Counted from the stretch's first letter, positions 16,312 to 59,684 are shown. The stretch: DNA of 64,000 nucleotides from Gammaproteobacteria bacterium (GCA_965221955.1 CBDCTA010000029.1:448001-512000), one strand, 5' to 3'. Numbers and translations are program-made. Notes: generated by a model not told the origin, from the sequence alone.

Positions 16312-16341
16312 AATAATTGCCAACGACCCAAAGCGGACATT
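16312..16341 (-). repeat. 30-bp palindromic site A (one arm degenerate)
   Basis: Reverse complement reads AATGTCCGCT-TTGGGTCGTT-GGCAATTATT. Confidence 0.8.
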
Positions 16342-16365
16342 CTAGAAATTAACATGGAGACAAAT

Positions 16366-16737
16366 ATGAATGATAAAACACTATACGAGCGATTAGGTGG
16401 GTATGAAGGCATCATTACTTTTGTGGAGGACCTGCTTCCACGCTTAGAAGCCGATTCTCAACTGGGCCGATTTTGGCAGCATCGAGGTGATGACGGCGTG
16501 GCAAGAGAGAAGCAACTATTGATTGACTATTTATGTGCTAATGCTGGTGGACCCATGTATTACACAGGGCGTGATATGAAAACATCACATGTAGGTATGA
16601 AAATAAGTGAAGAAGATTGGTCCATATTCATGGGGCATGCAGGGGACACTATGAAAGCATTAAATGTCCCAGAGCAAGAATGTAATGAAATTGCTGCCTT
16701 TGTAACGAGTTTAAAATCAGATATTGTCGAAGTTTAA
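16366..16737 (+). CDS. Group I truncated (2/2) hemoglobin
   Basis: LYERLGG, GGPMYYTGRDMKTSH (proximal His), GGAGA RBS before MNDK. Confidence 0.92.
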   Translation: MNDKTLYERLGGYEGIITFVEDLLPRLEADSQLGRFWQHRGDDGVAREKQLLIDYLCANAGGPMYYTGRDMKTSHVGMKISEEDWSIFMGHAGDTMKALNVPEQECNEIAAFVTSLKSDIVEV

Positions 16738-16809
16738 TGACAACTTATAACACTGAATTGGATTCCATATATCTACAAATATTGTATTGAGTCTTTAAGG
16801 GGTTTAGAG

Positions 16810-17601
16810 ATGGAAAGAAACACTACATTGTATTCAAGACTTGGTGAGCGAGACACTATATCCCGCCTCACTAACACGTTATTTTCACACATCATGGCTG
16901 ACAATCAATTAGGTAAATATTGGGAATCAATGTGTGATGATGGAATTAATAAAAACAGACAGTATCTTCTTGACTATTTATGTGCAAATACAGGTGGACC
17001 AGAACTTTATTCCGGCCGTGATAATAAAACTGCGCATAAGGGAATGGACATTACTGAACAAGACTGGACTAAGTTTATTACCCATTTAACAAATACGTTA
17101 GATGGTCATGGAATAATAAATCCAGAAAAAGATGAGGTGTTGAAGTTATTTGCTAATACAAAAAATGACATTGTAGAAGTAAAGCCAACAGTTAAGAGAG
17201 AATCACTGTTTGAAAGAATTGGAAGTTTATCTAAAGTGCAAGAGCTAGCGAGTGAATTTTACGATGTAATGGATAAAGAATCCTTTGCAAAAGATCTGCG
17301 TGAAATTCATCCAGAAAACTTATTTATGTCAAAAAAATCACTAGCTAAATTCATCGCTCAATGGTTGGGTGGGCCAAAATTATTTGGTGATCAGTATGTA
17401 AACGTTACATGGTTAGAGCTACGGCATCGAAGATTTGAGCTGAGCGAAAAAAACAAACAACAATGGCTATATTGCATGGATATGGCGATGACGAATGTAG
17501 GAATTGAAGATGGCTTAAAACGTGAACTACACCGAAAATTTGAAGGCATGATAAATTCAATGCAACTGCAAAGAGACAGAATCAAAAACAAAAATATTTA
17601 G
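16810..17601 (+). CDS. Two-domain truncated hemoglobin (group I + group II-like)
   Basis: N-domain GGPELYSGRDNKTAHKGM; C-domain LFERIG...EFYDVM...QWLGGPKLF...LRHRRF...QQWLYCM. Confidence 0.85.
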   Translation: MERNTTLYSRLGERDTISRLTNTLFSHIMADNQLGKYWESMCDDGINKNRQYLLDYLCANTGGPELYSGRDNKTAHKGMDITEQDWTKFITHLTNTLDGHGIINPEKDEVLKLFANTKNDIVEVKPTVKRESLFERIGSLSKVQELASEFYDVMDKESFAKDLREIHPENLFMSKKSLAKFIAQWLGGPKLFGDQYVNVTWLELRHRRFELSEKNKQQWLYCMDMAMTNVGIEDGLKRELHRKFEGMINSMQLQRDRIKNKNI

Positions 17602-17607
17602 TTGGGG

Positions 17608-17637
17608 AATGTCCGCTATTGGCCAAAGGCGGACATT
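17608..17637. repeat. 30-bp palindromic site B
   Basis: AATGTCCGCT-ATTGGCCAAA-GGCGGACATT, 6 bp after the globin stop. Confidence 0.85.
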
Positions 17638-17700
17638 TTTAGCTCAGTTGTCTCTAATCTGTTGCATCGTCCCTGATGGACATCATATTCGCATATCCAT

Positions 17701-17730
17701 GTGCTCACTAAGTGCCCGAAAGCGGACATT
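17701..17730 (-). repeat. 30-bp palindromic site C (one arm degenerate)
   Basis: Reverse complement AATGTCCGCT-TTCGGGCACT-TAGTGAGCAC; 4 bp from the dxs stop. Confidence 0.75.
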
Positions 17731-17734
17731 TTAT

Positions 17735-19603
17735 TCAAGAAATTTTTACAGTATTAGTTTTTGTAAACTCTTGAATCGATTTCAAAATCGATTTTGCATC
17801 GAGTCCGGCTTCTTCTAGAAGTTCTTCGCGGGAGGCATGGTCTTGATAGATGTCAGGTAGGCCTAAGTTTTTAATTTTTATTTTAGTATTATTTGTTAAT
17901 ACTTCGTTTACTGCGCTGCCAGCGCCGCCTGCAACAACATTGTCTTCAACAGTAGCGATGAATTCATGCTGCTGAGCTATTTTTCCAACTAAAGCGGAAT
18001 CAATCGGTTTAACAAAGCGCATATTTACAACGGTTGCATCGAGCTCTTCGCCCGCTTGGAGTGCATCATAAACAGTGCTTCCGAAAGCCAATATTGCAAC
18101 ATCCTTTCCTTCACGAAGAACTTCGGCTTTGCCGATTTGAACTTCACGCATTTCAGGAGACACGGGAGCGCCTGGTCCGCTTCCACGCGGATAACGCACA
18201 GCAGTAGGGCAGTCTTGTAGGTGTGCGGTGTAAAGCATGCGTCGAGTTTCGTTTTCATTTGCGGGTGTCATGACAATCATGTTGGGAATGCAGCGTAAAT
18301 AAGTTAAGTCGAAACTGCCGGCATGCGTTTGTCCATCGGGGCCAACAACGCCTGCACGATCGATGGCAAAAACAACCGGTAAGTTTTGTACTGCGACATC
18401 GTGAATGAGTTGATCGTATGCGCGTTGTAAAAACGTTGAGTAAATTGCAACGACGGGTTTTAATTTTTCACATGCCATACCTGCTGCAAGGGTAACGGCA
18501 TGTTGTTCTGCAATCGCAACGTCGAAATATCGATTGGGGAATTTCTTTTCAAACTCTACTAGACCAGAACCTTCGCGCATTGCGGGAGTGATGGCGACAA
18601 CACGATCATCTTGTTCAGCAATATCACAAATCCAGTCGCTAAAAACTTTTGTATAGGTGGTTTTAGGTTTTTTATTTGATTTAACTACGCCCACATTTGG
18701 GTCAAATGAAGGTACCGCATGATAACCAACAGGGTCAGACTCGGCTTTTTCGTAACCTTTACCTTTGCGAGTTACAATGTGTAAAAGACGGGGGCCTTCT
18801 AAGCGTTTTAAATTTTGTAATGTTTTAGCTAAACCTGAAACATCGTGGCCATCGACAGGGCCAAAATAATTTACACCCATTTCTTCAAACAATGTGCCGG
18901 GTGCAATCATACCTTTAACATGTTCTTCAGCACGTTTAGCCAATTCATGAATGGGTGGGAGAGGTTCGAGTAATTTCTTACTGCCTTCACGCATGCTAGA
19001 CATCACACGACCCGATAAAATGCGTGTTAGATAATTTGTCATTGCACCTACGTTTGGTGAAATAGACATTTCGTTGTCATTTAGAATAACAAGTAAATCG
19101 GCTCTACAAGCGCCAAGATGGTTTAAGGCTTCATAAGCCAGTCCTGCAGTGAGTCCGCCATCGCCGATTACAGCTACAACTTTACGTTTCTCAGTTTGTT
19201 GGCTGGCAATCGCCATACCTAATGCTGCACTGATAGAAGTGCTAGAGTGACCTACACCGAAATGATCGTATTCACTTTCATTGCGTTTCGGGAAAGGTGC
19301 TAATCCATCTTTGGTGCGAATGGTAGTGATTTGATTTTTACGACCCGTAAGAATTTTATGTGGGTAACATTGGTGCCCAACATCCCACACAACTCGATCA
19401 TGCGGGGTATTAAATACATAATGCAATGCGGTAGTAATTTCGATTGCACCTAATCCTGCAGCAAAGTGCCCACCACTTGTTGCGACCGAGTCTAATAAAT
19501 AAGCGCGTAATTCTTGTGCTACTGCAGGCAAATGTTTGGCATCCAAGGCACGTAAGTCTGCGGGATACTCAATGTTGCTTAGTAATGGATATTGTTGGGT
19601 CAT
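17735..19603 (-). CDS. dxs: 1-deoxy-D-xylulose-5-phosphate synthase
   Basis: [31 protein letters not shown]. Confidence 0.98.
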
Positions 19604-19605
19604 TG

Positions 19606-20544
19606 TTACGAATTTCGATTGACCATATAGTTACTGATCATTCTTAAATTGTCAGCACGCTCATCTAGGTCTTGTAGCTCATTTAATGCCTCTTGCAACA
19701 AATTATTCGCGGTATTTTTGGCTTGTTCTACCCCCACAATGCTAGGGTAGGTAGGCTTATTTTGTGCCACATCTGAGCCCTGCGGTTTACCTAAGGTCTC
19801 GGTATCAGCCTGAATATCGAGGATATCGTCACGGATCTGAAAAGCGAGGCCTACTTTTTCTGCAAAATGTGCAAAGTGCGCAAAGGTTTTGGGGGTATTC
19901 ATATCACTGGCAACCACTGCCATAAGTACACTTGCTTGGATTAAAGCCGCAGTTTTAAGTGTATGCATGGTAGTAATTTGTGTTTCATCCAGCTGTTTAT
20001 TGACTGAGGCAAGGTCAATCGCTTGGCCTCCTGCCATGCCTAATGAGCCTGAAGCATTTGCGAGTAACTGAATCATTTTGACACGCTGGTCATTAGGTAC
20101 TTCTGCATTTGCAAGAATGGCAAATGCCAATGCTTGAATCGCATCACCTGCAAGAATGGCTGTCGCCTCGTCAAATGCTTTATGGCATGTAGGTTGGCCA
20201 CGACGTAAATCATCATCATCCATAGCAGGAAGATCGTCGTGAATGAGTGAGTAACTGTGCATCAGTTCGACAGCACAAGCAGCCGAATGTAAATGTTCTA
20301 TATTCGTATCTAGCGCTTCTCCCGTTGCGTATACAAGTGCAGGGCGAATACGTTTGCCGCCGCTCACGACAGAGTATCGCATGGCTTGATGCAATCTTTT
20401 AGGGGCGTCAGTTTCGTTAGGGAGTTTGTTTTCTAGTTGTTGGTTAACTTGATTTGCATATAGTGTAATTAATTCATCAACAGTGAGTTGTTGCATCAAT
20501 GTTTCACTATCCATTTCATTAGTCTTTGAGGTCTTCACTATCAT
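19606..20544 (-). CDS. ispA: Farnesyl diphosphate synthase (true start probably a downstream Met)
   Basis: [30 protein letters not shown]. Confidence 0.95.
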
Positions 20545-20773
20545 CGAGATCCTTCTCTATCCATTCTTGATCTTCTTTGCTCAAAACAGAAATTTTTTGT
20601 TCTGCTGTTTGCAAAGCTTGTCGGCATTCGCGCGTAAGTTTTACGCCTTGCTCAAAATTTTTAAGTGAGTCCTCTAATGAAAGGTCACCTTTTTCTAGTT
20701 TATCGACTAAGCTTTCTAATTGTTTTAGCGATTTTTCAAAATCTATAGTCTTTGTAGAGGGTTTACGCGCCAA
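20519..20773 (-). CDS. xseB: Exodeoxyribonuclease VII small subunit
   Basis: FEKSLKQLESLVDKLEKGDLSLEDSL; xseB-ispA-dxs synteny. Confidence 0.95.
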   Translation of the reverse strand: MARKPSTKTIDFEKSLKQLESLVDKLEKGDLSLEDSLKNFEQGVKLTRECRQALQTAEQKISVLSKEDQEWIEKDLDDSEDLKD

Positions 20774-20837
20774 AATTTTTTCCTATTTATATTTGATATA
20801 AGTCATAAAAGATCGTTTTGAATTTGATCGATTCAGG

Positions 20838-20892
20838 TTGACATGTTTTTAGACCTAGTCTAGAGTTTCACACAGTTTAGACTAAGTCTAAA
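20838..20892 (+). promoter_or_regulatory. Sigma70 promoter of the rubrerythrin operon with two palindromic operators
   Basis: TTGACA (20838) N17 TAGAGT (20861); TTTAGACCTAGTCTAGA (20848-20864) and perfect TTTAGACT-A-AGTCTAAA (20876-20892). Confidence 0.8.
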
Positions 20893-20955
20893 TCATACAA
20901 AACCGGCAAATTCATTATGACTTTGCTGTAATCATAATAGCTGGAGGTAGCGATA

Positions 20956-21372
20956 ATGTCTCTAAAAGGCAGTAAAACTGAAGAAAATTTAAAAGCCGCA
21001 TTTGCGGGTGAATCACAAGCTAACCGTCGATATCTATATTTCGCTGCGAAAGCAGACGTAGAAGGTTACAACGACGTATCTGCAGTATTTCGCTCAACTG
21101 CGGAAGGCGAGACAGGTCATGCGCACGGCCACTTAGAATACTTAGAAGAGTGTGGTGATCCTGCTACAGGTCTACCAATTGGTGGCACGAGCGATAACTT
21201 GAAAGCAGCTATCGCAGGTGAAACGCATGAGTATACAGATATGTATCCAGGCATGGCGAAAACCGCTCGCGAAGAAAACTTTGACGAAGTTGCAGACTGG
21301 TTTGAAACGCTAGCGAAAGCAGAGCGTTCGCACGCAAACCGTTTCCAAAAAGCTTTAGACACTTTAGATTAA
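20956..21372 (+). CDS. Rubrerythrin lacking the rubredoxin domain (aerobic type)
   Basis: [40 protein letters not shown] di-iron ExxH motifs. Confidence 0.95.
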
Positions 21373-21411
21373 GTTTTCAACTAGTCTAGGTGACTGAACA
21401 AAATCACCGAA

Positions 21412-21466
21412 AAGATTTTGCATAGTACAAACCGTAACAATGCGGTTTGTGCCTTGCAAAAATCTT
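21412..21466 (+). terminator. Long intra-operon hairpin after rubrerythrin
   Basis: AAGATTTTGCA..ACAAACCG/CGGTTTGT..TGCAAAAATCTT. Confidence 0.5.
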
Positions 21467-21491
21467 CCACGACGCAACAGGATAATCTTTT

Positions 21492-22820
21492 ATGAGAGAA
21501 GGTAGCTTAGAAGCACCTACACGGCATTCTATTGATTGGCAAGATCCAAAGTTTTATGACGAGGACGACCTTAATAAAGAATTAGAGCGTGTATACGATA
21601 TCTGCCATGGTTGCAGACGTTGCGTAAGCTTATGTAATTCTTTTCCAACCCTATTTGATTTGGTGGATGAATCAGAAACCATGGAAGTAGATGGTATTGC
21701 AAAGGAAGATTACATCAAAGTGGTTGATCATTGTTATTTATGTGATCTTTGTTTTCTAACTAAATGCCCCTATGTGCCTCCACATGAATGGAACGTAGAT
21801 TTCCCCCATCTAATGTTGCGCGCCAAAGCCATTAAATTTAAAAAGCAGGGTGCATCCAAGCGTGACAACATGCTGAGCAACACGGATAAAAACGGCAGGT
21901 TTTACGGTATTCCAATAATCACGCAAATGGTTAACGCCGTTAATAAAAACACTTTTGCGCGTAAACAGATTAAGAAGTCACTAGGAATTCATCCTGATGC
22001 TTATTTGCCCGCTTACGTAAGTAAGTCAGCAAAAAAACAGTTTGGTAAGCGCCAATCGGCAGTAAATAATCCCACTGCTGTAGGCAGCACAACAGGCAAA
22101 GTAGCCATTTATGCTACGTGTTACGGGAATCATAATGAACCCGGTTTAGTGGAAGGTCTCATTAAAATTTTTGAGCACAACAGCATTGAGACTAAACTTA
22201 TTACTCAAGACAAGTGTTGCAGCATGCCAAAGTTAGAGCTGGGTGATCTCGAATCTGTAGCGACCAATAAAGAGCACAATGTTCCTATCATGTTGGGTGT
22301 CATTGAAGATGGTTGGGATATTATTGCTCCGATACCTTCTTGTGTGTTGATGTTTAAGCAAGAGTTGCCACTGATGTTTCCAAAAGATGAGGCGTTAAAA
22401 AAAGTTCAACAATCCATTTTTGATCCGTTTGAATATTTAGCATTACGCCATAAAGAAGAGTTGCTCAATACGGACTTTAAAACTTCACTGGGTAAAATTT
22501 CTTATCACGCGCCGTGCCATTTGCGTGTACAAAACATGGGAAACAAAACGCGTGATATTTTGAATCTCGTGCCTGATACAGAAATTGAACTGATTGAACG
22601 ATGTGCCGGACATGATGGAACCTATGCAGTCAAAGAAGAATTTCATGAAGTATCGATGAAAATTGCACGCCCTGTTGTGAATAAAATTAAGAAAAACGAA
22701 CCTAATTACTTTTCTAGTGACTGCCCGTTAGCAGGTCATCATTTAGCAAATGGTATTGATCAAAATAAAACATCCCCCACACACCCTATAACATTACTAC
22801 GCATGGCCTACGGTATTTGA
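21492..22820 (+). CDS. Rubrerythrin-associated Fe-S oxidoreductase (GlpC/HdrD-like)
   Basis: CHGCRRCVSLC, CYLCDLCFLTKCP, CCG-type domains. Confidence 0.92.
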   Translation: MREGSLEAPTRHSIDWQDPKFYDEDDLNKELERVYDICHGCRRCVSLCNSFPTLFDLVDESETMEVDGIAKEDYIKVVDHCYLCDLCFLTKCPYVPPHEWNVDFPHLMLRAKAIKFKKQGASKRDNMLSNTDKNGRFYGIPIITQMVNAVNKNTFARKQIKKSLGIHPDAYLPAYVSKSAKKQFGKRQSAVNNPTAVGSTTGKVAIYATCYGNHNEPGLVEGLIKIFEHNSIETKLITQDKCCSMPKLELGDLESVATNKEHNVPIMLGVIEDGWDIIAPIPSCVLMFKQELPLMFPKDEALKKVQQSIFDPFEYLALRHKEELLNTDFKTSLGKISYHAPCHLRVQNMGNKTRDILNLVPDTEIELIERCAGHDGTYAVKEEFHEVSMKIARPVVNKIKKNEPNYFSSDCPLAGHHLANGIDQNKTSPTHPITLLRMAYGI

Positions 22821-22821
22821 T

Positions 22822-23406
22822 ATGCAAAAGTTAGCGCGACAAGATTTACATTCTTTAGAAGATTATTCTGCCATGCGCGATGAATTTCGCGCACAAGTAA
22901 TTCAACATAAAAAAAACCGTGTGTTGCAAGTAGGCCCCAATGTCACCATGCATTTTGAAGACAGACTCATCATGCAGTACCAAATACAAGAAATGCTACG
23001 TGCGGAAAAAATATTTGAAAGTGATGGGATTCAAGAAGAGCTCGATGCCTACAATCCAATGATTCCAGATGGGAGTAATTGGAAAGTTACCTTTATGATT
23101 GAATTTCCAGATCCAGATGAACGTGCTATTAGGTTAAGAGAAATGCTAGGCATTGAAGATGCAACCTATATACAAGTTTCAGGGCACGACAAAGTGAACC
23201 CTATCAGTGATGAAGATTTGCCACGTGAAACCGAGGAAAAAACCTCATCTGTACACTTTATGCGTTTTGAACTTACTGATGAAATGATAAGTGACCTTAA
23301 GAGCGGAGCGGCATTAAGTGTGGGGATTGATCACCCGAAATATCAGCATGCGATTGAAGCATTACCTGCTTCGGTGAGAGATTCTTTGATAGCAGATCTA
23401 GATTAG
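22822..23406 (+). CDS. DUF3501 family protein
   Basis: YQIQEMLRAE, ELDAYNPMIP, KTSSVHFMRF; cluster context. Confidence 0.9.
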   Translation: MQKLARQDLHSLEDYSAMRDEFRAQVIQHKKNRVLQVGPNVTMHFEDRLIMQYQIQEMLRAEKIFESDGIQEELDAYNPMIPDGSNWKVTFMIEFPDPDERAIRLREMLGIEDATYIQVSGHDKVNPISDEDLPRETEEKTSSVHFMRFELTDEMISDLKSGAALSVGIDHPKYQHAIEALPASVRDSLIADLD

Positions 23407-23699
23407 ATATGGATTTCCTGTTTAAAGATCTTTTGGAACCAAGCGTATGCGTAGAGAAAGTATCTTTCTATCCTTGAAATTTCATTGGGACAAAGCCAGT
23501 GAAATAAAACTTTAGTTTATAAATAACCTTCTCTACAACATACTTAACATATCCACATAGGCGAGGATAGCATTCATTAGTTTTTGAGTACCTGATTGTG
23601 ATCAGTCAGATTGCACTTTTAATAAGTATTTATATGACAGACAGGTGTTACAGGGCTAACTAATAAAATTAAATATTGGGATTATTTTGATATTTAGTT

Positions 23700-24473
23700 T
23701 TAGTGGAATAGGCTTAAATCATATTCAGAAAAACTGCGTAGTGTTTCATAGCTTAAAATTTTAATACTTTTTCTTTCTGCCTCAATAAGCTGGTGTTCAC
23801 GAAGCTTTGAAAATGCTCTACTTATTGTTTCATCGGCCAAGCCTAAATAACTACCAATGTCATATCGGCTCATCGACAAGTTAAAATTAATCGGACAATG
23901 TCCTCGTTCTTTACGTCTATCAGATATATTTACTATAAATGAAGCTAATCGTTGTTCAGGATTCTTGTTTGCAAGCAGTGCTAACATGAAGTGTGTTTTT
24001 GTAGTTTCATCGCGCATAAGATTTATTAAGCGACTATGTAATTTTAGACTTTTTAAACATAAACTATTTAATTCATTAAATGGGAAGGCGCAAATAACAG
24101 AATTTTCCAATGCGATACCTGAACAGTTATGAATTTTATCATCTAACCCGTAAAATCCAGTCAATTCACCAGGTAAGTGAAACCCTATGATCTTCTCTAT
24201 ACCATTTTTTAATGGTATTTGTGTTTTCACAGAGCCTGATTGAACAGCATAAATACAACCAGATTTTTCTTTATATTGAAAAATCAATTCTCCTTTTCGT
24301 ACTAATTTTCGATGCTTTATTGCTTGATCTAAAACATCAACATCAGATTGTTCGAGCCCTCTAGGTAGACAGATATCACTAATCAAACAATTACTACAAT
24401 TGGATTTAATAGATTTATTATTTGGGTCTTTTGAATGCCAAGGTAGTATTTGCTCGTCTAAGACAGTTTTCAT
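23700..24473 (-). CDS. FNR-like Crp/Fnr regulator
   Basis: N-terminal CSNCLISDIC cluster plus central Cys, HTH MSRYDIGSYLGLADETISR. Confidence 0.9.
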   Translation of the reverse strand: MKTVLDEQILPWHSKDPNNKSIKSNCSNCLISDICLPRGLEQSDVDVLDQAIKHRKLVRKGELIFQYKEKSGCIYAVQSGSVKTQIPLKNGIEKIIGFHLPGELTGFYGLDDKIHNCSGIALENSVICAFPFNELNSLCLKSLKLHSRLINLMRDETTKTHFMLALLANKNPEQRLASFIVNISDRRKERGHCPINFNLSMSRYDIGSYLGLADETISRAFSKLREHQLIEAERKSIKILSYETLRSFSEYDLSLFH

Positions 24474-24514
24474 AATGAGGTCTTTGAATTATGTTTATTG
24501 CTAACACTGAACTA

Positions 24515-24530
24515 AGCAATTAGCAGGCCA
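24515..24530 (-). promoter_or_regulatory. Putative sigma54 (-24/-12) promoter of the fnr paralogue
   Basis: Minus strand TGGCCTGCTAATTGCT matches TGGCAC-N5-TTGCW spacing, about 40 bp upstream of the start codon. Confidence 0.65.
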
Positions 24531-24959
24531 AATGTGTTTGGCTTTAATAAGTCTCTGAATTTTATATAGATAATTTAAATATTAAGTTATGAAATTTTTT
24601 CAGATGTTTCATTTCCTTAAACTCAATTACAAATAATGAAACAAATAAATATTTTAGAAAGAATCTACCGTTTCATTATGAAACTGGCTTTATTCATTGA
24701 GTATAGGATTTTAACTTAAATAAGTTTTCTGAATTGTTAGTTTCAACGACAAAAAATACGCTTATCTCAATCTTGAGAGCTTGAGCCAAACCACCAAAAC
24801 CTATCACCAGTCTTACTACTAGATGGTTCATAAATTATGATCTTTACAAGAAAAAGTAAAATAACAGATCAGCTGAAATAGTTTTAATTTTTATTTCAAA
24901 CCCACAAAAAACCCTCATTTTATAAACAATAAGTATTTTAATTTTTTCTTATTTATTTA

Positions 24960-25002
24960 ACTGATCAGAATCAGTGTAATAAATGGTCATAATTTTTAGA
25001 AT
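24960..25002 (+). promoter_or_regulatory. FNR-type box with class II promoter geometry
   Basis: ACTGAT-CAGA-ATCAGT (24960-24975) and a -10-like TAGAAT at 24997-25002. Confidence 0.6.
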
Positions 25003-27961: not shown

Positions 27962-27992
27962 AATGTGTACTTTGGGTCGTTAGCAGTTCATT
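27962..27992 (+). repeat. 30-bp palindromic site D overlapping the fdhD stop codon
   Basis: AATGTGTACT-TTGGGTCGTT-AGCAGTTCATT. Confidence 0.75.
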
Positions 27993-48860: not shown

Positions 48861-48868
48861 CACTCCGC

Positions 48869-49937: not shown

Positions 49938-49941
49938 GTCC

Positions 49942-50068: not shown

Positions 50069-50073
50069 GAGAT

Positions 50074-51636: not shown

Positions 51637-52710
51637 CTAGTTTAGTGTATGTTGTTGTAATGCCCATGCAACATGTTCTCTGACTAATTCGCTTGCATGG
51701 TTTCGTTTTTCTTGTAATGCGCGAAGTATTTTCGGTGAGCTGGATGCATTGCCTAGTGCTACCGCAATATTCCTCAGCCAGCATTCGTAGCCAACTCGCC
51801 TTATGGCAGAGCCTTCAGTATTTTTTAGGAAATCCTCTTCGCTCCAATTAAATAAATCAATTAACTGCGGTGCATCTAAATTATTACGCACAGCAAAATC
51901 TGCCAGCTCACTTTTTTGTTCAAAGCGATTCCAGGGGCAATATAGTTGGCAGTCATCACAGCCATAGATGCGGTTACCCATCGCTTTTCTAAATTCAACA
52001 GGAATGGAGGTTTTTAATTCAATCGTGTGGTAAGAAATGCAACGTCGTGCATCAAGTTTATACGGTGCAATGATTGCCTGAGTTGGACAAACTTCTATGC
52101 AGGTTTGACAGGTTCCGCAATGATTTTCGACACGCGAATCTATAGGTAATGGTAAATCGGTATATAGCTCACCAAGAAAAAACCATGAACCACATTCTTT
52201 GTTAATTAAATTGGTGTGTTTGCCTATCCAACCGAGACCGGCTTTTTCTGCTAAGGCTTTCTCAAGCACGGGGGCGCTATCGGTAAATGCTCGATAACCA
52301 AATGGCCCTACTGTATTCGCTATTTTATCTGCAAGTTTTTGTAAGCGTTTGCGAATCACTTTGTGATAGTCGCGCCCTAATGCATAGCGAGAAATATAAG
52401 CTTGTTCATAATTAGCTAATACTTCTTCTTCGCTTACTGCGTCTGGAGTTTGATAGTTAATACGTGTGGAGATGATACGAATAGTTCCAGGCACGAGTTT
52501 TTCTGGACGTGTGCGCTTCGTACCATGCTCACCCATGTAATACATTTCTCCGTGATAACCTGCATCTAGCCAATTCATTAAATGCGTTTCATGATCATTT
52601 AATTCAGTATTGCTGATACCGATTTCATCAAAGCCTAATTCTTTTCCCCAGTCTTTTATATCTTGAGCAAGCTTTGAAAAATCTATAGTTGGGTTATTCA
52701 TTGCTAACAT
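51637..52710 (-). CDS. queG: tRNA epoxyqueuosine reductase QueG
   Basis: RYALGRDYH, DSAPVLEK, two 4Fe-4S motifs. Confidence 0.96.
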   Translation of the reverse strand: MLAMNNPTIDFSKLAQDIKDWGKELGFDEIGISNTELNDHETHLMNWLDAGYHGEMYYMGEHGTKRTRPEKLVPGTIRIISTRINYQTPDAVSEEEVLANYEQAYISRYALGRDYHKVIRKRLQKLADKIANTVGPFGYRAFTDSAPVLEKALAEKAGLGWIGKHTNLINKECGSWFFLGELYTDLPLPIDSRVENHCGTCQTCIEVCPTQAIIAPYKLDARRCISYHTIELKTSIPVEFRKAMGNRIYGCDDCQLYCPWNRFEQKSELADFAVRNNLDAPQLIDLFNWSEEDFLKNTEGSAIRRVGYECWLRNIAVALGNASSSPKILRALQEKRNHASELVREHVAWALQQHTLN

Positions 52711-52714
52711 ATAA

Positions 52715-52865
52715 TAAAGGAAACTTTGATTTATACTGTCATGTTAATTTTTATGGTCGTTAAATTGATTACTTAAAATGCTCATGTATAGTTAATACAC
52801 TCCGCTTTCTCGTAATCAATTTGCCTCATCTCAATCATTTCATTAGTAAATCAAAGCTTCCTTTA
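52715..52865 (+). mobile_element. MITE-like palindromic element, copy 4
   Basis: TAAAGGAAACTTTGATTTA/TAAATCAAAGCTTCCTTTA (18/19 TIR), fills the queG-nnr divergent gap. Confidence 0.78.
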
Positions 52866-52869
52866 AGTT

Positions 52870-54345
52870 ATGAGTGAATTAGCGAATCAAATTTACTTAG
52901 CACATCAAGTACGCGAGCTTGATCGTATTGCCATAGAAGAATTTAACATACCCAGTTTTACTTTAATGCAACGTGCTGCAGAAGCAGCATTTAAAGAAAT
53001 ACAGCAATCATGGCCGAATGTTAGTCGTATTATCGTATTGGTGGGTACGGGCAACAATGGTGGAGATGGCTATGTGATTGCAAGTCTTGCTTTGACTGCA
53101 AATATTGCGACCCAAGTCATTCAGGTGGGTGATCATACGAAATTGCAAGGTGATGCGAAAAAAGCCCACGACTTATTTGTTGAGAAGGGTGGAAAATGTG
53201 AGGTTTTTGACGACCTTGCATATTCAGATTGTGATGTGATTGTAGATGCTTTATTGGGTACTGGTTTGACACGAATGGTTGAAGGCAATTATGCAAAAGC
53301 AATTGGTAGAGCCAATCAGCATTCAGCGCCAATATTAAGTGTTGATATTCCATCAGGCCTTAATGCCGACAATGGTCTTGCAATGGGTATTGCAGCGGTT
53401 GCTCAGGTGACAGTGACCTTTGTAGGTATGAAGCTTGGTTTATTAACTGCAGCGGGGCGTGAGTATTCAGGTAAAATCATTTTTAATCATTTGGAAATTT
53501 CAGAAAAAGTTTATCAATCCATGCCAGCTACTTGTCAATCGATTCAATTAAGTGATTTTCAAACCTTGCTTGGTGCACGTAAAGCAGATGCGCATAAAGG
53601 TGATTTTGGTCATGTGTTGATTATTGGTGGCAATGCAGGCATGGCAGGTTCCGTGATGTTAAGTGCTGAAGCTGCGGCTAGAACGGGTGCAGGTTTGGTT
53701 TCTGTTGCTACCATTCCGCAACATGCAACAGCTGCATTGTCTTCATGTAGAGAAATCATGGTGCATGGAATAGAAGGAGTTTCACAATTAAATACCTTAC
53801 TGCAACAATGTAGCGTCGTAGCAGTGGGCCCTGGGCTTGGGAAAGATGATTGGGCGAAAACTTTATTTGCTCGGGTGATGGAGTTTGAAATTCCCATGGT
53901 TGTGGATGCGGATGGGTTAAATCTTTTAGCTGGTGAGCCAATGCAAAAACCATCGTGGGTGATTACACCGCATCCTGGTGAAGCAGCACGCTTGTTAGAT
54001 TGCTCAACAAAACAAGTACAAGAAGATCGTTTGCAATCCGTGCAGGCATTACAAAAAAAATTTGGTGGAGTAAGTGTATTGAAAGGAAGTGGAACTTTAG
54101 TAGCATCTGAAACCGATGTTTCAATTTGCACTGCAGGTAATCCGGGAATGGCAAGTGGTGGTATGGGGGATGTACTAACCGGAATTATTGCTGGTTTGTT
54201 AGCACAAGGCTTGAATATCTATGATGCTGCTCGTTTTGGTGTGCAGTTGCATGCACAAAGTGCAGATCTTGCTGCGAAAGAGGGTATGCGTGGCATGATT
54301 GCCAGTGATTTATTTATACCACTGCGAAATTTAGTCAACGCTTAA
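52870..54345 (+). CDS. nnr: Bifunctional NAD(P)H-hydrate epimerase/dehydratase
   Basis: GNNGGDG, DIPSG, HKGDFG, TPHPGEAARL, GGMGDVLTG. Confidence 0.95.
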   Translation: MSELANQIYLAHQVRELDRIAIEEFNIPSFTLMQRAAEAAFKEIQQSWPNVSRIIVLVGTGNNGGDGYVIASLALTANIATQVIQVGDHTKLQGDAKKAHDLFVEKGGKCEVFDDLAYSDCDVIVDALLGTGLTRMVEGNYAKAIGRANQHSAPILSVDIPSGLNADNGLAMGIAAVAQVTVTFVGMKLGLLTAAGREYSGKIIFNHLEISEKVYQSMPATCQSIQLSDFQTLLGARKADAHKGDFGHVLIIGGNAGMAGSVMLSAEAAARTGAGLVSVATIPQHATAALSSCREIMVHGIEGVSQLNTLLQQCSVVAVGPGLGKDDWAKTLFARVMEFEIPMVVDADGLNLLAGEPMQKPSWVITPHPGEAARLLDCSTKQVQEDRLQSVQALQKKFGGVSVLKGSGTLVASETDVSICTAGNPGMASGGMGDVLTGIIAGLLAQGLNIYDAARFGVQLHAQSADLAAKEGMRGMIASDLFIPLRNLVNA

Positions 54346-54354
54346 AGATTCCCT

Positions 54355-54801
54355 ATGACGACACTCGTAGGCGAATCTGCCACATTAGAGTTTTCTGCAA
54401 AATTTGCATCCTTATGTAAGCCACCATTAGTGATTTATTTGCAAGGTGATTTGGGTAGCGGCAAAACGACTTTTGCACGTGGATTGATCGGAGCCTTAGG
54501 GTATTGCGGCAATGTGAAGAGTCCAACATTCTCTCTAGTAGAAATCTATGATTTTGAAGGGATGCGCCTTTACCATTTCGACCTATATCGTTTAAAAGAT
54601 CCGCTTGAATTGGAGTACACCGGTATACGAGATTTGGTAGGAGAAGATGAAGTAGTGTGTCTAATCGAGTGGCCAGAGCGAGGTGGAGAAGAGTTACCGC
54701 CAGCAGATTTAGTCATAAAACTGGAATATCAAGGCGATGCTCGCAAAGTAGCTTGGCAGGCTGAATCAACAAAAGGTCAAGCGATTATCGATAAATTATG
54801 A
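54355..54801 (+). CDS. tsaE: tRNA threonylcarbamoyladenosine biosynthesis ATPase TsaE
   Basis: GDLGSGKT, VKSPTF, HFDLYRL, IEWPE. Confidence 0.96.
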   Translation: MTTLVGESATLEFSAKFASLCKPPLVIYLQGDLGSGKTTFARGLIGALGYCGNVKSPTFSLVEIYDFEGMRLYHFDLYRLKDPLELEYTGIRDLVGEDEVVCLIEWPERGGEELPPADLVIKLEYQGDARKVAWQAESTKGQAIIDKL

Positions 54802-54919
54802 GATCAGGCTCTAATAAATTGGCATAGGCCATTAGTTTTAATAGAGTTTTTGCTTGCAATTTCGTTTATATTTGTCACACTTTAAGTCCGGTTTCATGTT
54901 GTAAGGACTACAGCCCCAC

Positions 54920-56359
54920 GTGCAGCAGCATTTTCATACTGGTAATCCGTTAAAAATACAGGCATCAAGATTAGCTCAAATTCTAATCTATTCCATTTCT
55001 GTGTTAGTAGGTTCAGTGTTTTTCATGCTGAGCACTTCCAGTTTTGCTGCCAACAATATTGCTCAAATCAGTGATCTTCGAATTGCCGATCGCAAGACAG
55101 AAACACGAATAGTTTTCGATTTAAACGCACCTGTAAAGCACAGTATTTTTGTACTAAAAAATCCAGACCGTGTAGTGTTGGATATCGGGCAATGCGATGC
55201 GAATGGCAAGCTCAAAGTGGGTCGCGTGGGTGGCACACTGGTTAAAGATTTGCGTTATGCACAAAAGACGAATGAAAAATTACGCGTCGTATTTGATTTA
55301 AATTCACCGGTATCCCCAAAAAGCTTTTTGTTGCCACCACAAAGTGGCAAGGCCTATCGATTAGTCATCGATCTGACTGCGACAACTGCGCTTACAACGG
55401 CTCCAAGTGAAACAAAAAAGCCGCACGCTGAACCTGTAGTAGCTATGAAAGATGCACCTGTAAGCCGTCGTGATGTCGTCATCGCAATTGATGCAGGTCA
55501 TGGAGGTAAAGACCCGGGTGCAATTGGTCGTGGAGGCACGCGTGAAAAAGATATTGTGCTTTCTATTTCTAAAAGACTTAAAAATCTAATTGATAAAGAA
55601 CCTGGAATGAAAGCAGTGTTAATTCGAGATCGTGATACTTTTGTTCCGTTAAGAGGAAGAATTAAAAAAGCCAGCAAGTTAAATGCTGATATTTTTCTTT
55701 CTATTCATGCGGATGCTGCAGTAAATCGTCGTGCTAAGGGTTCTTCGGTATATGTGCTATCGCAACATGGTGCAACCAGTGAGGCCGCGCGTATCTTAGC
55801 GCAACGCGAAAATGCGTCAGATAAAATTGGTGGGGTTAGCCTAGAAGACAAAGATGATGTGTTGAAATCGGTATTGGTCGATTTATCACAAACCGCGACC
55901 ATTGATGCCAGTATCGACTTAGCAGAAGACATTCTTAACGAGCTCGCTAAAGTTGGAAATATATTACGAGACGAAGTAGAACAAGCGGGTTTTGCAGTGT
56001 TGAAATCGCCCGACATTCCATCTGTTTTAGTTGAGACTGCATTTATTTCAAACCCTGCAGAAGAAAAGCGTTTAAAAACAACAACGCATCAACAAAAACT
56101 TGCTACCGCAATTCTTAAGGGTTTACGTCGTTATGCAAAAGATCATGCTCCTGCAAATGCAATTTTGGCGAGTGCTCCGACTCCTACACCACTGACTAGA
56201 TACACCATAAAACGTGGCGATACCTTGTCTGGCATTGCGGTACGTTACAAAGTCAGCATTAGAGATTTACGCAAAGCGAATGGATTGCGTTCAGATGTAC
56301 TTAAAGTAGGGCAAGTATTAACCATTCCAACATCACCTATGGTTACTGCTGGCGCGTAA
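54920..56359 (+). CDS. amiB: N-acetylmuramoyl-L-alanine amidase (AMIN + Amidase_3 + LysM)
   Basis: IDAGHGGKDPGA, SIHAD, LVETAFISN, C-terminal LysM; follows tsaE. Confidence 0.9.
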   Translation: MQQHFHTGNPLKIQASRLAQILIYSISVLVGSVFFMLSTSSFAANNIAQISDLRIADRKTETRIVFDLNAPVKHSIFVLKNPDRVVLDIGQCDANGKLKVGRVGGTLVKDLRYAQKTNEKLRVVFDLNSPVSPKSFLLPPQSGKAYRLVIDLTATTALTTAPSETKKPHAEPVVAMKDAPVSRRDVVIAIDAGHGGKDPGAIGRGGTREKDIVLSISKRLKNLIDKEPGMKAVLIRDRDTFVPLRGRIKKASKLNADIFLSIHADAAVNRRAKGSSVYVLSQHGATSEAARILAQRENASDKIGGVSLEDKDDVLKSVLVDLSQTATIDASIDLAEDILNELAKVGNILRDEVEQAGFAVLKSPDIPSVLVETAFISNPAEEKRLKTTTHQQKLATAILKGLRRYAKDHAPANAILASAPTPTPLTRYTIKRGDTLSGIAVRYKVSIRDLRKANGLRSDVLKVGQVLTIPTSPMVTAGA

Positions 56360-56379
56360 TTTAAAAAGTTTGATTTGAA

Positions 56380-56556
56380 GGGAGAGCTGCGCACGGATGC
56401 GCAATTATATTGTGAGTCTAGGGGTATGCGAATATGATTCGCAGAGAGGGCGACCTACAGAGATGTTGGAAGTGCTAGAAAGCAGGATGCAGTTTCTAGT
56501 GAGACGCAACTGATTAAAGTCCAGTGATTTTAATTAAGCGCAGGTTGGGGAGCTCA
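56380..56556. repeat. Multi-hairpin intergenic element
   Basis: TGCGCA-cgga-TGCGCA, TGCGAAT/ATTCGCA, CTAGAAA...TTTCTAG, closing GAGCT/AGCTC. Confidence 0.55.
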
Positions 56557-56570
56557 AAGCATATTTTCAA

Positions 56571-56600
56571 AAAGTCAGCTTTCGGTCAATAGCAGACATT
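56571..56600 (+). repeat. 30-bp palindromic site E
   Basis: AAAGTCAGCT-TTCGGTCAAT-AGCAGACATT, 14 bp from the sigma-factor stop. Confidence 0.8.
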
Positions 56601-56614
56601 CAATGTATCACTTA

Positions 56615-57181
56615 CTAGCAACATTGATCCTTATTTAAGCTGTTTTTTTGCTTATACTCGATCACCTTTCCAAAACGATCCTTTTCAATTTCACAACAAG
56701 CTAGAAGTTCTTCTTTTAATTTAATGCGTCCTCGCTGTATACGTGACTTCATTCCTGAAACCGAAATACCTATTCGCTCTGCGGCATCAGCTTGCTTAAT
56801 TTCATTGAAGTCTGCTAATAGCAGAGCTTCCTTGTATTTCGGTTCCAGCTTGTTTGTAAGTGGTCTCAAACATTTGGCAAATTCACTATCTACGTTGTCA
56901 GGCATACTTTCATAATCAGCTATTGTAGTTTCAAGGTCATTAACATCATTTGATGCATTTATATTCGAGTGTTTTCGGTAATAGTCTGTAATTCTATTTT
57001 TGGCAACGATGTAAATCCATGCAAGTGGATTTTCAGCATCAGTTAACGCGCCCTCATTTTGTAGTACGCTTAAGAGAATGTCGTGTACTAAATCCTCAGA
57101 TACATCGACATCCACTTTGGTACGAATATACTTGGTTAATAAGGATCGCAACTCATCCCAAGTTGTATTTAATTCGGACAT
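56615..57181 (-). CDS. ECF sigma factor, SigZ-like
   Basis: EDLVHDI, AWIYIVAKN, SVSGMKSRIQRGR..LK..LLACC. Confidence 0.88.
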   Translation of the reverse strand: MSELNTTWDELRSLLTKYIRTKVDVDVSEDLVHDILLSVLQNEGALTDAENPLAWIYIVAKNRITDYYRKHSNINASNDVNDLETTIADYESMPDNVDSEFAKCLRPLTNKLEPKYKEALLLADFNEIKQADAAERIGISVSGMKSRIQRGRIKLKEELLACCEIEKDRFGKVIEYKQKNSLNKDQCC

Positions 57182-57586
57182 TTATGCACAACACGCACTT
57201 GATTTTGAGGCATTGGCTTCATCGGGATTATCGTTGGTTATGGTGTACCACTCCCAATTTAGTCCTTGCGGCTCGGTTGACCACACTTTGTCTTGTGTCG
57301 CAAAGCAGCATGTTGTTTGATCTTCAATTTTGTTTGCGATGTCATCACGTTCGAGTCGCTTTATTACCTCACCCAAATCATCATTTTGATCTACTTCCAC
57401 TCCAAGATGATTGATTCTGTCATTCGCATTGGGATCTTCAATCAGAACCAGCTTCAATGGTGGATTATCAATCACAAAGTTTGCGTATCCCTTTCTTCGT
57501 TTATGTGGCTTAGTATCGAAGAGTTTTGTGTAATAGCTTACAGCTTCGTCAATATTCCTTACGTTTAAGGCTAATTGTAGTCTCAT
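57182..57586 (-). CDS. ArsI/CadI family VOC-fold metalloenzyme
   Basis: LQLALNV, GYANF, NHLGVEV, TTCCFATQDKVW, terminal CC. Confidence 0.92.
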   Translation of the reverse strand: MRLQLALNVRNIDEAVSYYTKLFDTKPHKRRKGYANFVIDNPPLKLVLIEDPNANDRINHLGVEVDQNDDLGEVIKRLERDDIANKIEDQTTCCFATQDKVWSTEPQGLNWEWYTITNDNPDEANASKSSACCA

Positions 57587-57670
57587 AGTACTTGCTCCAA
57601 ATTCATTAATTGAGTTAGTAGTAAAAGACGTTTCAAAAAGGAAAAGGACGCAAAAATTAGTTAACTGGGG

Positions 57671-57700
57671 AATGCCCGCTTTGGGTCGTTAGCGGACATT
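57671..57700 (+). repeat. 30-bp palindromic site F (closest to consensus)
   Basis: AATGCCCGCT-TTGGGTCGTT-AGCGGACATT. Confidence 0.9.
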
Positions 57701-57743
57701 TTAAGATTGTAAATTACTGATTCCAACACATTGCGTCCCATAA

Positions 57744-57774
57744 TTTGTCTGCATTCGGCTCAGAAGTGTCCATT
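57744..57774 (+). repeat. 30-bp palindromic site G (degenerate)
   Basis: TTTGTCTGCA-TTCGGCTCAGA-AGTGTCCATT. Confidence 0.55.
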
Positions 57775-57842
57775 TGCTCGTATCTTGATTGAGTGCTTGT
57801 TAGCGACTGTATAACTTATTCAATAATACAATGAGCAATTTC

Positions 57843-58034
57843 TTAGCGTTCGATTCGAACCTCATCCATCTTGGACATCCTTCTTTTAAGTTCTTTCTCA
57901 AGGATATTTCTTGCATACGGTTTCATTCTCTTCCATTTCTCACATTCCTGTTCAGTTCGACCGCAACCCAGGCACCAGCCTTTGGGTCCTTTGAACTGAC
58001 ACACATCGATACAAGGACTTTTTTGCCGTTTCAC
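57843..58034 (-). CDS. DUF1289 family protein
   Basis: SPCIDVC...WCLGCGRTEQE..KW. Confidence 0.88.
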   Translation of the reverse strand: MKRQKSPCIDVCQFKGPKGWCLGCGRTEQECEKWKRMKPYARNILEKELKRRMSKMDEVRIER

Positions 58035-58080
58035 TGTTTATTGCACCATTTAAACGCTTGTGCTTTTTTATCAACTCAAG

Positions 58081-58521
58081 CTAGGTTTGCACTAGACTCA
58101 GTGCTTGTTCTATACCTTTTTCCAGCTGTCGAAGTCTGTTGAACTCTTCGAGTAGCCGTTGTTCCAAATTCTTAAAATTGAGAGGGAGCGTTCTTTTACA
58201 AATGCTGTATCCTTCACCGATCTGATAACCCTTCCAATTTTTTATACGATCGCTTTCTAGGGCTAGAAATTCTTGAATGAATTCCTGCTGTGAAGGGCAA
58301 TCTTCTTCTGCATGCATACAGATTGGGAAGGCTTTTTGTTTAATTTCTCTGGCTTCTATGAAAGTTTCAAAATGTATTCCTCCTTGATTATGATTGTGCC
58401 AGTTATATTTGTAGAGTTGCAGATAAACACCGCGGTTGTAAATTTCCCAACCACTATCAAACCAACTTGATTGATTAATTTTTCTTTCAAGGTTTCGAAA
58501 AACTTTTTTTATATCTTTCAT
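58081..58521 (-). CDS. Hypothetical protein
   Basis: Likely start MKDIKK; Trp/His-rich segment WHNHNQGGIHFETFIE; no family recognised. Confidence 0.75.
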   Translation of the reverse strand: MKDIKKVFRNLERKINQSSWFDSGWEIYNRGVYLQLYKYNWHNHNQGGIHFETFIEAREIKQKAFPICMHAEEDCPSQQEFIQEFLALESDRIKNWKGYQIGEGYSICKRTLPLNFKNLEQRLLEEFNRLRQLEKGIEQALSLVQT

Positions 58522-58629
58522 GTTTAGGATATTTCTTAATTTAAAGTCGGTAGACAAAAGCTAATAGTTACGAAACTTTGATGAAATATGGAAAAGTGCA
58601 AATACGAATCTTATTATCATAAATTAATT

Positions 58630-58659
58630 AATGTCTGCTTTGGGTCGTTAGCGGCCATT
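58630..58659 (+). repeat. 30-bp palindromic site H touching the sohB stop codon
   Basis: AATGTCTGCT-TTGGGTCGTT-AGCGGCCATT. Confidence 0.88.
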
Positions 58660-59684
58660 CAATTAAACAATTTCGAGTCTTGTTCTTTTTGCCACCAAGA
58701 AAAAAATAATTTATCTATGGTCATCTGCATGGAGGTTGCAAAACGTTCGCTGATGGTTTTAGGCACTTCATATTTAATTTCATAAATGTCTGCCTCGTTG
58801 CTCGCGTTTAATAAGTAATCGTCACTGGTAATCAGTTCATCTACGAGTTTGAGCTCAAGTCCGCGTGTGGCAAGCCAATGTTCACCTGTAGCGACTTTAT
58901 CGATTTCAAGAATAGGACGATTCTCTTTTACAAACTCTTTGAATAAGTCGTGAGTGTCTTCTAATTGCTCGTTAAAATGCGCACGATCTTCATCGGTGTT
59001 TTTACCAAACATGGTGACTGTGCGCTTGAGCTCACCTGCCTTCATCAATTCAAAGTCCACACCATGCTTATCTAGAAAGCGATTGAAGTTTGGTAATTGT
59101 GCTAGTACGCCAATGGAGCCAACGATGGCAAAAGGAGCAGCAATAATTTTGTCGGCTACGCATGCCATCATATAGCCACCGCTTGCGGCTACCTTGTCGA
59201 CTGCAACAGTGAGTGGAATACCTTTTTGTTTTATGCGTAAAAGTTGCGAAGAAGCGAAACCATGTTCATGTACTAATCCGCCAGCATTTTCTAAACAAAC
59301 CACCACCTCATCTGAGCTATCCGCTACTGATAAAATTGCTGTGATCTCTTTTCTGAGATGGCGTACAGCAGAAGCTTTTATGTTGCCTAAGAAATTAAGT
59401 ACAAAAATACGTTTTTTATCTGTATCAGGATGTTTCTTTTCTTTTTTACGTTCTTTCTTATTTTCTTTTTTTACCTTTTTTAAATCTTTTTTAGATAACA
59501 AAGCAAAACGTAGTCGATCAGACATATTCTTATACTTTTTATTTAGATGAGTGATCTCAAAATGATCATGGCTACGTGCTTTTTTCGAAAAGGAAAATGC
59601 CAGCATCATAAGTACCCAAATAAAAATCAGGGCGGTGATTGCCTTGGCAAAAAATAATCCGTATTCGGTTAAAAATTCGATCAT
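58659..59684 (-). CDS. sohB: S49 family protease SohB
   Basis: DKVAASGGYMMAC, GSIGV..Q.PNF, KRTVTMFG, ATGEHW. Confidence 0.95.
   Translation of the reverse strand: MIEFLTEYGLFFAKAITALIFIWVLMMLAFSFSKKARSHDHFEITHLNKKYKNMSDRLRFALLSKKDLKKVKKENKKERKKEKKHPDTDKKRIFVLNFLGNIKASAVRHLRKEITAILSVADSSDEVVVCLENAGGLVHEHGFASSQLLRIKQKGIPLTVAVDKVAASGGYMMACVADKIIAAPFAIVGSIGVLAQLPNFNRFLDKHGVDFELMKAGELKRTVTMFGKNTDEDRAHFNEQLEDTHDLFKEFVKENRPILEIDKVATGEHWLATRGLELKLVDELITSDDYLLNASNEADIYEIKYEVPKTISERFATSMQMTIDKLFFSWWQKEQDSKLFN

Follow-up and report, generated by a model that had tools for sequence, protein, structure and literature searches.

A 30-bp palindrome at the borders of small-gene cassettes that vary as units in a gammaproteobacterial genome

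Introduction

How do small accessory genes come to lie, one by one, between the core genes of a bacterial chromosome? The question is raised by a stretch of 64,000 nucleotides from a Gammaproteobacteria bacterium (GCA_965221955.1, CBDCTA010000029.1:448001-512000), referred to below as the window. In this window, two globin genes stand between bamC and dxs, and further small genes follow amiB. Copies of a 30-bp palindrome, here named P and made of two 10-base arms around a 10-base spacer, lie at the edges of these genes. The original prediction, made from the sequence of the window, took eight copies of P to bound accessory modules and proposed an integron- or pdif-like cassette system served by a recombinase encoded elsewhere. 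The analysis below followed P through the source genome, its relatives and other bacteria, and asks whether P is a joint at which genes are exchanged as units and what kind of recombination might act there.

Results

P sites form clustered and co-oriented arrays

The window corresponds to C29:448001-512000 of a 29-contig, 2.69-Mb assembly (genome G000), which comes from a marine sulfur bacterium, is 96.6% complete with a contamination estimate of 4.3% and contains SoxY and DsrC genes. The pattern AATGTCCGCT-N10-AGCGGACATT, at up to 3 mismatches, matched the window four times, at 17608 (1 mismatch), 56571 (3), 57671 (1) and 58630 (2), and not once in 100 shuffles. Only these four of the eight predicted copies are good sites; the others (16312, 17701, 27962 and 57744) are weaker and, as their sequence reads, half or degenerate. 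The asymmetric spacer TTGGGTCGTT that four copies were said to share is present at 57671, 58630 and 27962, and 16312 has it in reverse-complement form.

The whole genome contains 87 P sites at up to 2 mismatches and 157 at up to 4 arm mismatches, and the reversed control pattern gave 0. There are two loop types, T1, which comprises TTGGGTCGTT and close variants, and T2, which comprises TTCGGCCAAT and its variants. Nearly all of the sites (152 of 157) are intergenic, while crude calls of open reading frames (ORFs) span about 89% of the genome. They are also strongly clustered: 134 of the 157 have a neighbouring P within 2 kb, whereas random placement, repeated 200 times, gave 32 on average and 53 at most. 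When sites were chained at spacings of 3 kb or less, 45 groups were obtained, namely 19 singletons, 11 pairs and 15 arrays of 3 to 23 sites. Consecutive sites enclose 72 intervals longer than 120 bp, with a median length of 524 bp (range 205-2,792) and a GC content of 34.3%, compared with 38.6% for the genome.

The original prediction also held that sites are co-oriented and keep one polarity relative to their cargo. In the window this was found at the two loci tested and failed at 27962, where the nearby small ORFs (dodecin and SCO4226-like) lie on the opposite strand. Across the genome it was upheld. Orientation, as judged from the loop, is near-uniform within arrays (23 of 23 sites on the minus strand in C5, 22 plus and 1 undecided in C23, and 10 of 10 alike in C11), and 98 sites follow the polarity rule against 11 that oppose it (T1 52 of 61, T2 46 of 48), with another 25 having no ORF within 120 nt.

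Many joints are doublets of about 105-115 bp, in which a T1 site is followed by a linker and a T2 site. One example is the array at C5:675-6331, located between a glutamate-synthase gene and prc, where eleven doublets alternate with same-strand ORFs of 70-234 amino acids. These ORFs begin 15-40 nt past T1 and finish at or inside T2, and 7 of the 10 between doublets have no Pfam family. Across the 15 arrays, the cargo is for the most part unknown or stress genes; in other arrays it includes a globin, OsmC, Hsp20, M48 and M23 peptidases, GNAT acetyltransferases, SbtA, cyanase, isochorismatase and cation transporters. A bacterial-type globin is P-bounded cargo three times, each time in a different array, and two of these arrays belong to different bacterial classes: at 16354-17601 of the window, at L019:1907-2398 in the C23 array, and at L202:5691-6257 in an alphaproteobacterial metagenome-assembled genome (MAG).

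Cassettes are gained and lost as units within the assembly

Two contigs of the assembly carry two versions of one locus (C14:1-12000 and C23:7228-27587). When C14 was read on its reverse strand, its flanks were 99.3% (3.6 kb, on the dsbC-xerD-RDD side) and 99.0% (4.3 kb) identical to those of C23. The two versions share one 1.46-kb cassette at 98.7% identity, and their differences are confined to cassettes. C14 has an extra unit of 1,035 bp between two direct T2 sites, and C23 has one site at that place. This single site is a hybrid, its spacer end matching the left copy and its right arm the right copy, and the crossover therefore lies within a span of 5-6 bases at the border of spacer and arm. 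At the next joint the left flank is common, the spacer is inverted, and 1.5 kb (C14) is then found against 11 kb (C23), after which homology restarts at the left edge of the site at C23:23275. C14 and C23 probably represent two co-assembled strains, which would explain part of the contamination estimate. The joints found in Logan contigs, which are of low depth, were other copies of the repeat.

Cassettes are replaced and relocated between species

Twelve of the 14 genus relatives have both flanks of the bamC-dxs locus on one contig and were compared (G009 and G012 were left out). The two-globin cassette is missing at this place from all 12. In ten of them bamC and dxs are separated by a spacer of 42-273 bp that is free of P and of globin genes. 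Relative G007 has a different insert of 941 bp, and G011 has the dispersed repeat of about 290 bp also found here (Table 1) and a T1 site, then another one-gene cassette (416 bp), then an intact T2. G001 carries a homologue of the first globin in a different array and G007 on a different contig, at 79-82% identity.

A similar picture was obtained after amiB in the 14 relatives. In seven the gap is about 277 bp at most, six have 1.1-1.6 kb unlike the cassettes of G000, and G014 carries cassette 1 in reverse orientation and lacks cassette 2. G010 and G003 carry cassette 1 at other loci, and 7 of the 14 relatives have homologues of cassette 2 at other loci; in both cases the matches span from P to P. 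Five copies were checked, of which three have P at, or within 150 nt of, their end, one has a decayed T2 only, and the cassette-2 gene of G010 has no P nearby. Identity between species is 75-80%. The claim that P bounds accessory modules varying as units, with breakpoints in the site, is supported by the C14/C23, bamC-dxs and amiB comparisons alike.

Architecture of the joints

Alignment of 29 doublets revealed a systematic difference between their arms. The outer arms (L1 with R2) pair at 8.97 of 10 positions, compared with 7.07 of 10 for the inner arms (R1 with L2), so that the arms on the gene side are near-perfect and those on the linker side decayed. The two loops of a doublet are partly complementary, with 5.1 Watson-Crick and 1.2 wobble pairs of 10. 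The linker measures 43 nt in 14 doublets and 53 nt in 10, a bimodal length with a difference of one helical turn, and contains an invariant TCCAAC 22 nt from T1.

As single-stranded DNA, a well-kept doublet is predicted to form one long imperfect hairpin, at -18.8 and -19.7 kcal/mol for the two strands, with z scores of -4.6 and -4.1. The doublet of the window (57671..57773) is too decayed for this long-hairpin fold.

Features of the window

The features identified in the window are listed in Table 1. The gene labels given in the original prediction near bamC/dxs and amiB agree with Pfam, by which the order is NlpB/BamC, two globin ORFs and Dxs at the first locus, and Amidase_3/LysM (AmiB), an extracytoplasmic function (ECF) sigma factor with a glyoxalase-family protein, the 158-amino-acid ORF and an S49 peptidase at the second. 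Around 27962, Pfam gave a luciferase-like monooxygenase, dodecin, a SCO4226-like protein and FdhD.

Table 1. P sites, cargo and neighbouring elements in the window.
Feature	Position	Strand	Remark
Dispersed repeat of about 290 bp between the bamC stop and site A	16051..16341	+	Within the inserted segment
Site A, T1-type P; spacer and right arm intact, left arm degenerate; 5' joint of globin cassette	16312..16341	-	Sequence reading
Cargo of globin cassette: two ORFs, 16354-16737 and 16810-17601	16354..17601	+	Bac_globin (Pfam)
Site B, T2-type P, 1 mismatch; 3' joint of globin cassette	17608..17637	-	
Short non-coding element with GGA-loop hairpins; inside the T2 loop when compared with G011	17638..17700	-	
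Site C, half site (part of spacer and right arm) left by insertion of the element	17701..17730	-	One intact T2 in G011
Degenerate T1-type P: T1 spacer, degenerate arms, 1-base indel	27962..27992	+	
Run of GGA-loop hairpins after amiB, array border	56380..56540	+	Fold no better than shuffles (z -1.2)
T2-type P joint, 3 mismatches	56571..56600	+	Cassette 1 homology in G014, G003 and G010 begins here
Cargo of cassette 1: ECF sigma factor and glyoxalase-family protein	56615..57586	-	Pfam
Doublet joint: T1 P (57671-57700), 43-nt linker with conserved TCCAAC, degenerate T2 (57744-57773)	57671..57773	+	
Cargo of cassette 2: ORF of 158 amino acids, no Pfam family	58081..58557	-	
T1-type P, 2 mismatches; final joint ahead of S49 peptidase gene	58630..58659	+	

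The dispersed repeat ahead of site A has further copies at C2:219964, C29:70725, C17:56069 and C18:29344. It is missing from the bamC-dxs spacer in 10 of the 12 relatives examined and is present in G011, which has an intact T1 at the position equivalent to site A. The other copies open with a hairpin of the CGTC-type repetitive extragenic palindrome (REP), with an AT-started stem and a CCA tail, as that type is described in PMC3733652.

The GGA-loop elements consist of two or more short hairpins and have about 40 related copies among 51 genome pattern matches. Their stems covary (for example CCATC..GATG against GCAAC..GTTGC), and they sit at array borders, some copies lying inside the loop of a P site. 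The hairpins resemble CsrA/RsmA binding hairpins. A genome count of GGA hairpins with strict 4-bp stems gave no clear excess (646 against 570 in the reversed control). No match to Rfam at gathering score was found in the window, and 44 kb of arrays searched at E<=0.1 gave no relevant match.

Spread beyond the genome

At up to 2 mismatches, P was found in 13 of 14 genus members, in 5 of 10 other genera of the family and, in a sample of the class, in 1 of 16 other families. It was also present in 28 of 400 other Pseudomonadota, mostly in 1-8 copies and at most in 24. A scan of species genomes with exact arms gave at least 117 stretches, and Alphaproteobacteria, Enterobacterales, Xanthomonadales and a few MAGs labelled to other phyla are among the matches listed. 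P was counted in four genomes reached through these stretches: a closed alphaproteobacterial MAG, G438 (98 sites, clustered in about ten regions), a gammaproteobacterial MAG, G439 (64), a Dyella genome (35) and Agrobacterium vitis (a single site). Both loop types are present in G438 and G439. The cargo of G438 includes regulators, cyclases and a globin, with no recombinase. In G439, IS30-like transposase genes (HTH_38 and rve domains) lie among the P sites, at L204:9532-10182 and L205:5052-6011, and these transposases may use the palindrome as a target.

Discussion

Comparison with known systems

The P arrays resemble integron arrays and clusters of attC sites lacking integron integrases (CALINs) in being rows of small, co-oriented and mostly unknown genes between core genes. 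As in integrons, each gene is followed by an imperfect palindrome of about 60-140 bp that folds as a single strand, the units vary whole, and they are of similar size (median 524 bp). Unlike integrons, the P arrays lack IntI and an R-box core, and have neither attI nor Pc next to an integrase; P itself is a 10-10-10 palindrome with two loop types, forms many single 30-bp joints and occurs in about 15 arrays per genome. Inverse R-box cores at both ends were seen in none of the 29 aligned doublets, as judged by eye against the consensus. The integron of relative G015 does not use P.

With REPs, bacterial interspersed mosaic elements (BIMEs) and REP doublets forming hairpins (REPINs), P shares a short, extragenic, palindromic and multicopy nature, frequent pairing, a position mostly downstream of genes, and occurrence in Alpha- and Gammaproteobacteria. 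It differs from REPs in having no REP-associated tyrosine transposase (RAYT), in being clustered in cassette arrays rather than evenly spread, and in a sequence kept across classes. The original prediction had named scattering of the sites throughout the genome, regardless of accessory borders, as the mark of an ordinary REP. The outcome is mixed, since the family is indeed genome-wide, intergenic, hairpin-forming and REP-like, but is strongly clustered in cassette arrays in G000. According to Di Nocera et al. 2013 (PMC3733652), CGTC-tagged REPs have an unpaired CGTC/TGTC head, a stem of 8-9 bp starting with AT, a loop of 4-5 nt and a CCA tail, lack a known transposase and are common in Alphaproteobacteria; dRS3 of Neisseria is named there as a CGTC-1 REP. 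Compared with that description, P has a stem of 10 bp with TGTC inside it, a loop of 10 nt and no CCA tail.

Two further systems combine short repeats with mobile modules. The palindrome bounds gene modules with a short two-armed site, as in pdif modules, but is chromosomal, forms many arrays and is unlike the dif-like site of its host. The pdif modules of Acinetobacter plasmids carry inverted two-armed sites in alternating orientation, are acted on by XerC/XerD and are shuffled between replicons. Neisserial intergenic mosaic elements (NIMEs) are arrays of short modules, each flanked by the 20-bp palindromic dRS3, with a presumed role in the swapping of adjacent DNA. Their modules are non-coding stretches of 50-150 bp, whereas P modules are genes, and the repeat sequences are unrelated. 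P does not conform to the definitions of integrons and CALINs, of REPs, BIMEs and REPINs, and of pdif modules, and differs from the neisserial mosaics in content. As the original prediction held, it is neither attC nor dif: the IntI region of G015 is free of P, and the canonical dif-like site of the host (C4:59807) has no likeness to it. Nor is P a RAYT-associated REP. A small P cluster (C4:63576-65747) lies 4-6 kb from that dif-like site. No description of P or of such arrays was found in the literature by sequence-string and keyword searches, which did not cover supplements; the sequence string brought up primer lists only. The REP tables of PMC3733652 might list the hairpin, and a text search of PMC6501319 found no mention of such a repeat.

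Search for an enzyme

The original prediction expected no recombinase beside the sites, and scans of the ORFs neighbouring the arrays agreed. Among 89 ORFs within about 6 kb of 14 array regions no recurrent recombinase was found; the families that recurred among ORFs near the motif, in at least 117 loci of other taxa, were ordinary ones (ABC binding proteins, TPR, PAS kinases); and the 64 ORFs of the G438 and G439 arrays included no recombinase except the IS30-like copies in G439. The original prediction had also looked to a tyrosine recombinase or HUH nuclease co-occurring with the motif, and here it was not confirmed: none of IntI, Y1_Tnp, IS110, Transposase_31, rve, the phage-type integrase and the serine recombinase tracks P.

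For IntI (TIGR02249), the best matches in G000 are Xer-type, at 83 bits against a cut-off of 265. IntI exceeds the cut-off in 6 of 41 genomes and, within the family, only in G013 (0 P sites) and G015 (72). These two integrases are encoded at G013:C20:40615-41559 and G015:C29:6942-8018, and, among the genus members, the palindrome is missing from G013 alone. Y1_Tnp (PF01797) was not found in G000 or in the complete P-rich genomes G010, G014 and G019, and its presence in 4 of 24 family genomes is unrelated to P and includes G018, which has 0 sites. IS110, Transposase_31 and rve were found neither in G000 nor in the complete P-rich genomes. A miniature inverted-repeat transposable element (MITE) or mobile insertion cassette would share terminal inverted repeats with a transposase-bearing insertion sequence of the genome and show target-site duplications; of the families IS110, rve, Y1 and Transposase_31, none was found in G000. 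An apparent ISL3 domain beside one P site proved to be a partial Pfam match of a conserved fatty-acid desaturase (C29:67714-68889); this match is not a transposase lead, because 34 of 40 relatives carry the desaturase and some of these are free of P.

Site-specific or general recombination

We favour, with roughly even confidence, the reading that P is a site of recombination by an enzyme acting in trans and encoded away from the arrays, because this reading fits the layout, the turnover of whole units with breakpoints in P and the hybrid joint, as well as arms and loops that are conserved across classes. P would be the core of the joints, single or doublet, in a system of gene-cassette arrays, with cassettes of about 0.2-2.8 kb lying between joints in one reading direction, a T2 hairpin after the stop codon of each gene and a T1 before the next start. 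Recombination between a like-oriented pair of P sites would remove or add one cassette and one joint and leave a hybrid P, and exchange at the same joints would swap cargo. The folded single-stranded doublet may be the active form, by a logic like that of folded attC. We infer that the exchange is site-specific rather than general and that an enzyme carries it out. That P belongs to a widespread, IntI-independent mode of cassette capture in Proteobacteria, with a 30-bp core, two loop alleles, many small arrays per chromosome and either an enzyme family so far not connected with cassette arrays or a housekeeping recombinase acting on a non-canonical site, is possible but doubtful.

Several observations weigh against a trans-used recombination site. 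No recombinase co-occurs with P among the candidates tested. In G010, which is complete and rich in P, the only tyrosine recombinases are XerC, XerD and one phage-type integrase. The 431-amino-acid phage-type integrase of G000 was dropped as a candidate, as it matches (E<=1e-20) in only 5 of 40 relatives and has no counterpart in G010 or most other P-bearing genomes. A large serine recombinase was likewise dropped, since it lies in a prophage and is missing from P-bearing G001; it is encoded in a prophage-like region, C26:85300-90600 of G000 (L155:7305-12596), together with DUF2924, a terminase large subunit, DUF5681 and a ParB-domain DNA methylase. A homologue of cassette 2 in G010 has no P within 5 kb. 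The crossover span of 5-6 bases could also be produced by general recombination, and C14 and C23 could be a true duplication instead of two strains. In G438, hairpins fill most intergenic gaps, which is REP-like behaviour, and the T1 rule fails there, with 4 sites by rule and 14 opposite. Finally, paired positions within single P sites show 25 double changes, 13 of them complementary, none above expectation. Because double changes are not in excess, a stem of RNA or DNA in one P is not visibly under compensatory selection; in place of compensatory change, the asymmetry of the arms is systematic.

In a serious rival reading, P is a REP- or BIME-like expression hairpin, which at the 3' end would stabilise or terminate the upstream transcript, with a promoter-like linker ahead of the following gene, and cassette turnover is a by-product of general recombination through RecA, slippage or uptake of foreign DNA. 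We consider it possible, although not probable, and take it seriously because no enzyme co-occurs with P, because the alphaproteobacterial sites behave like REPs and because T2 holds a fixed place at 3' ends. The almost wholly intergenic distribution of P agrees with it, as does the position of T2 just past stop codons in fixed orientation (46 to 2 in G000 and 17 to 1 in G438). In G438, hairpin doublets or triplets recur in tandem, at a period of 45-46 nt, between most genes of regions of 20-35 kb, and the TCCAAC of the linker is invariant at a fixed distance. Known REPs, too, lie mainly downstream of genes, and one superfamily has no known transposase, as stated in PMC3733652. It fits less well that the arms have no compensatory changes preserving an RNA stem, that no U run follows T2 in the sense direction, and that a promoter scan of the C5 array gave 20 sites against 26.1 in shuffles. 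Moreover, a REP-type element leaves unexplained the framing of unrelated small genes one by one in co-oriented rows, and the near-identical arms and loops across classes of very different GC.

Known enzymes offer less likely explanations. XerC and XerD might act on P as on plasmid pdif sites, in modules with inverted, alternating sites and one arm variant. No other recombinase was found in all of the complete P-bearing genomes tested, the two arms differ (a consensus arm on the cargo side, a variant arm on the linker side), and arrays lie about 1 kb from xerD in G000 and G010. In view of a host dif-like site unlike P, the lack of any P within 10 kb of xerD in G001 and G019, and the presence of Xer proteins in P-free relatives as well, we regard their involvement as improbable. 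A service by IntI, with the arrays as integron remnants (CALINs) and the doublet as a diverged attC, would suit the integron-like layout, the attC-like fold of the doublet and the presence of IntI in the family. Such an origin is nevertheless very unlikely, since IntI above cut-off is missing from G000 and from the closed P-rich genomes G001 (39 sites), G010 (73), G014 (32) and G019 (122), and the 16 kb around the G015 IntI, including about 7 kb of small ORFs upstream, contain no P at up to 5 mismatches, besides the R-box cores not seen at doublet ends. Equally slight is the chance that a RAYT (Y1 transposase) moves the doublets as REPINs: the two-palindrome doublet of about 110 bp resembles a REPIN, but Y1_Tnp is distributed without regard to P, as described above.

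Significance

To our knowledge, integrons are the only well-understood bacterial route by which single genes are filed into expressed arrays, and they are reportedly lacking in Alphaproteobacteria. The arrays described here have an integron-like layout built with a different and strongly conserved site, with many arrays per genome and no integron integrase, and their hosts are free-living marine and soil Proteobacteria. If a dedicated enzyme for P exists, the arrays would be a second cassette system, and its site of 30 bp might be developed into a new tool for recombination. If there is no such enzyme, the arrays show how a flexible gene pool can be ordered by nothing more than a REP-like repeat. 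In both cases, P is a simple marker for the flexible genes of these genomes.

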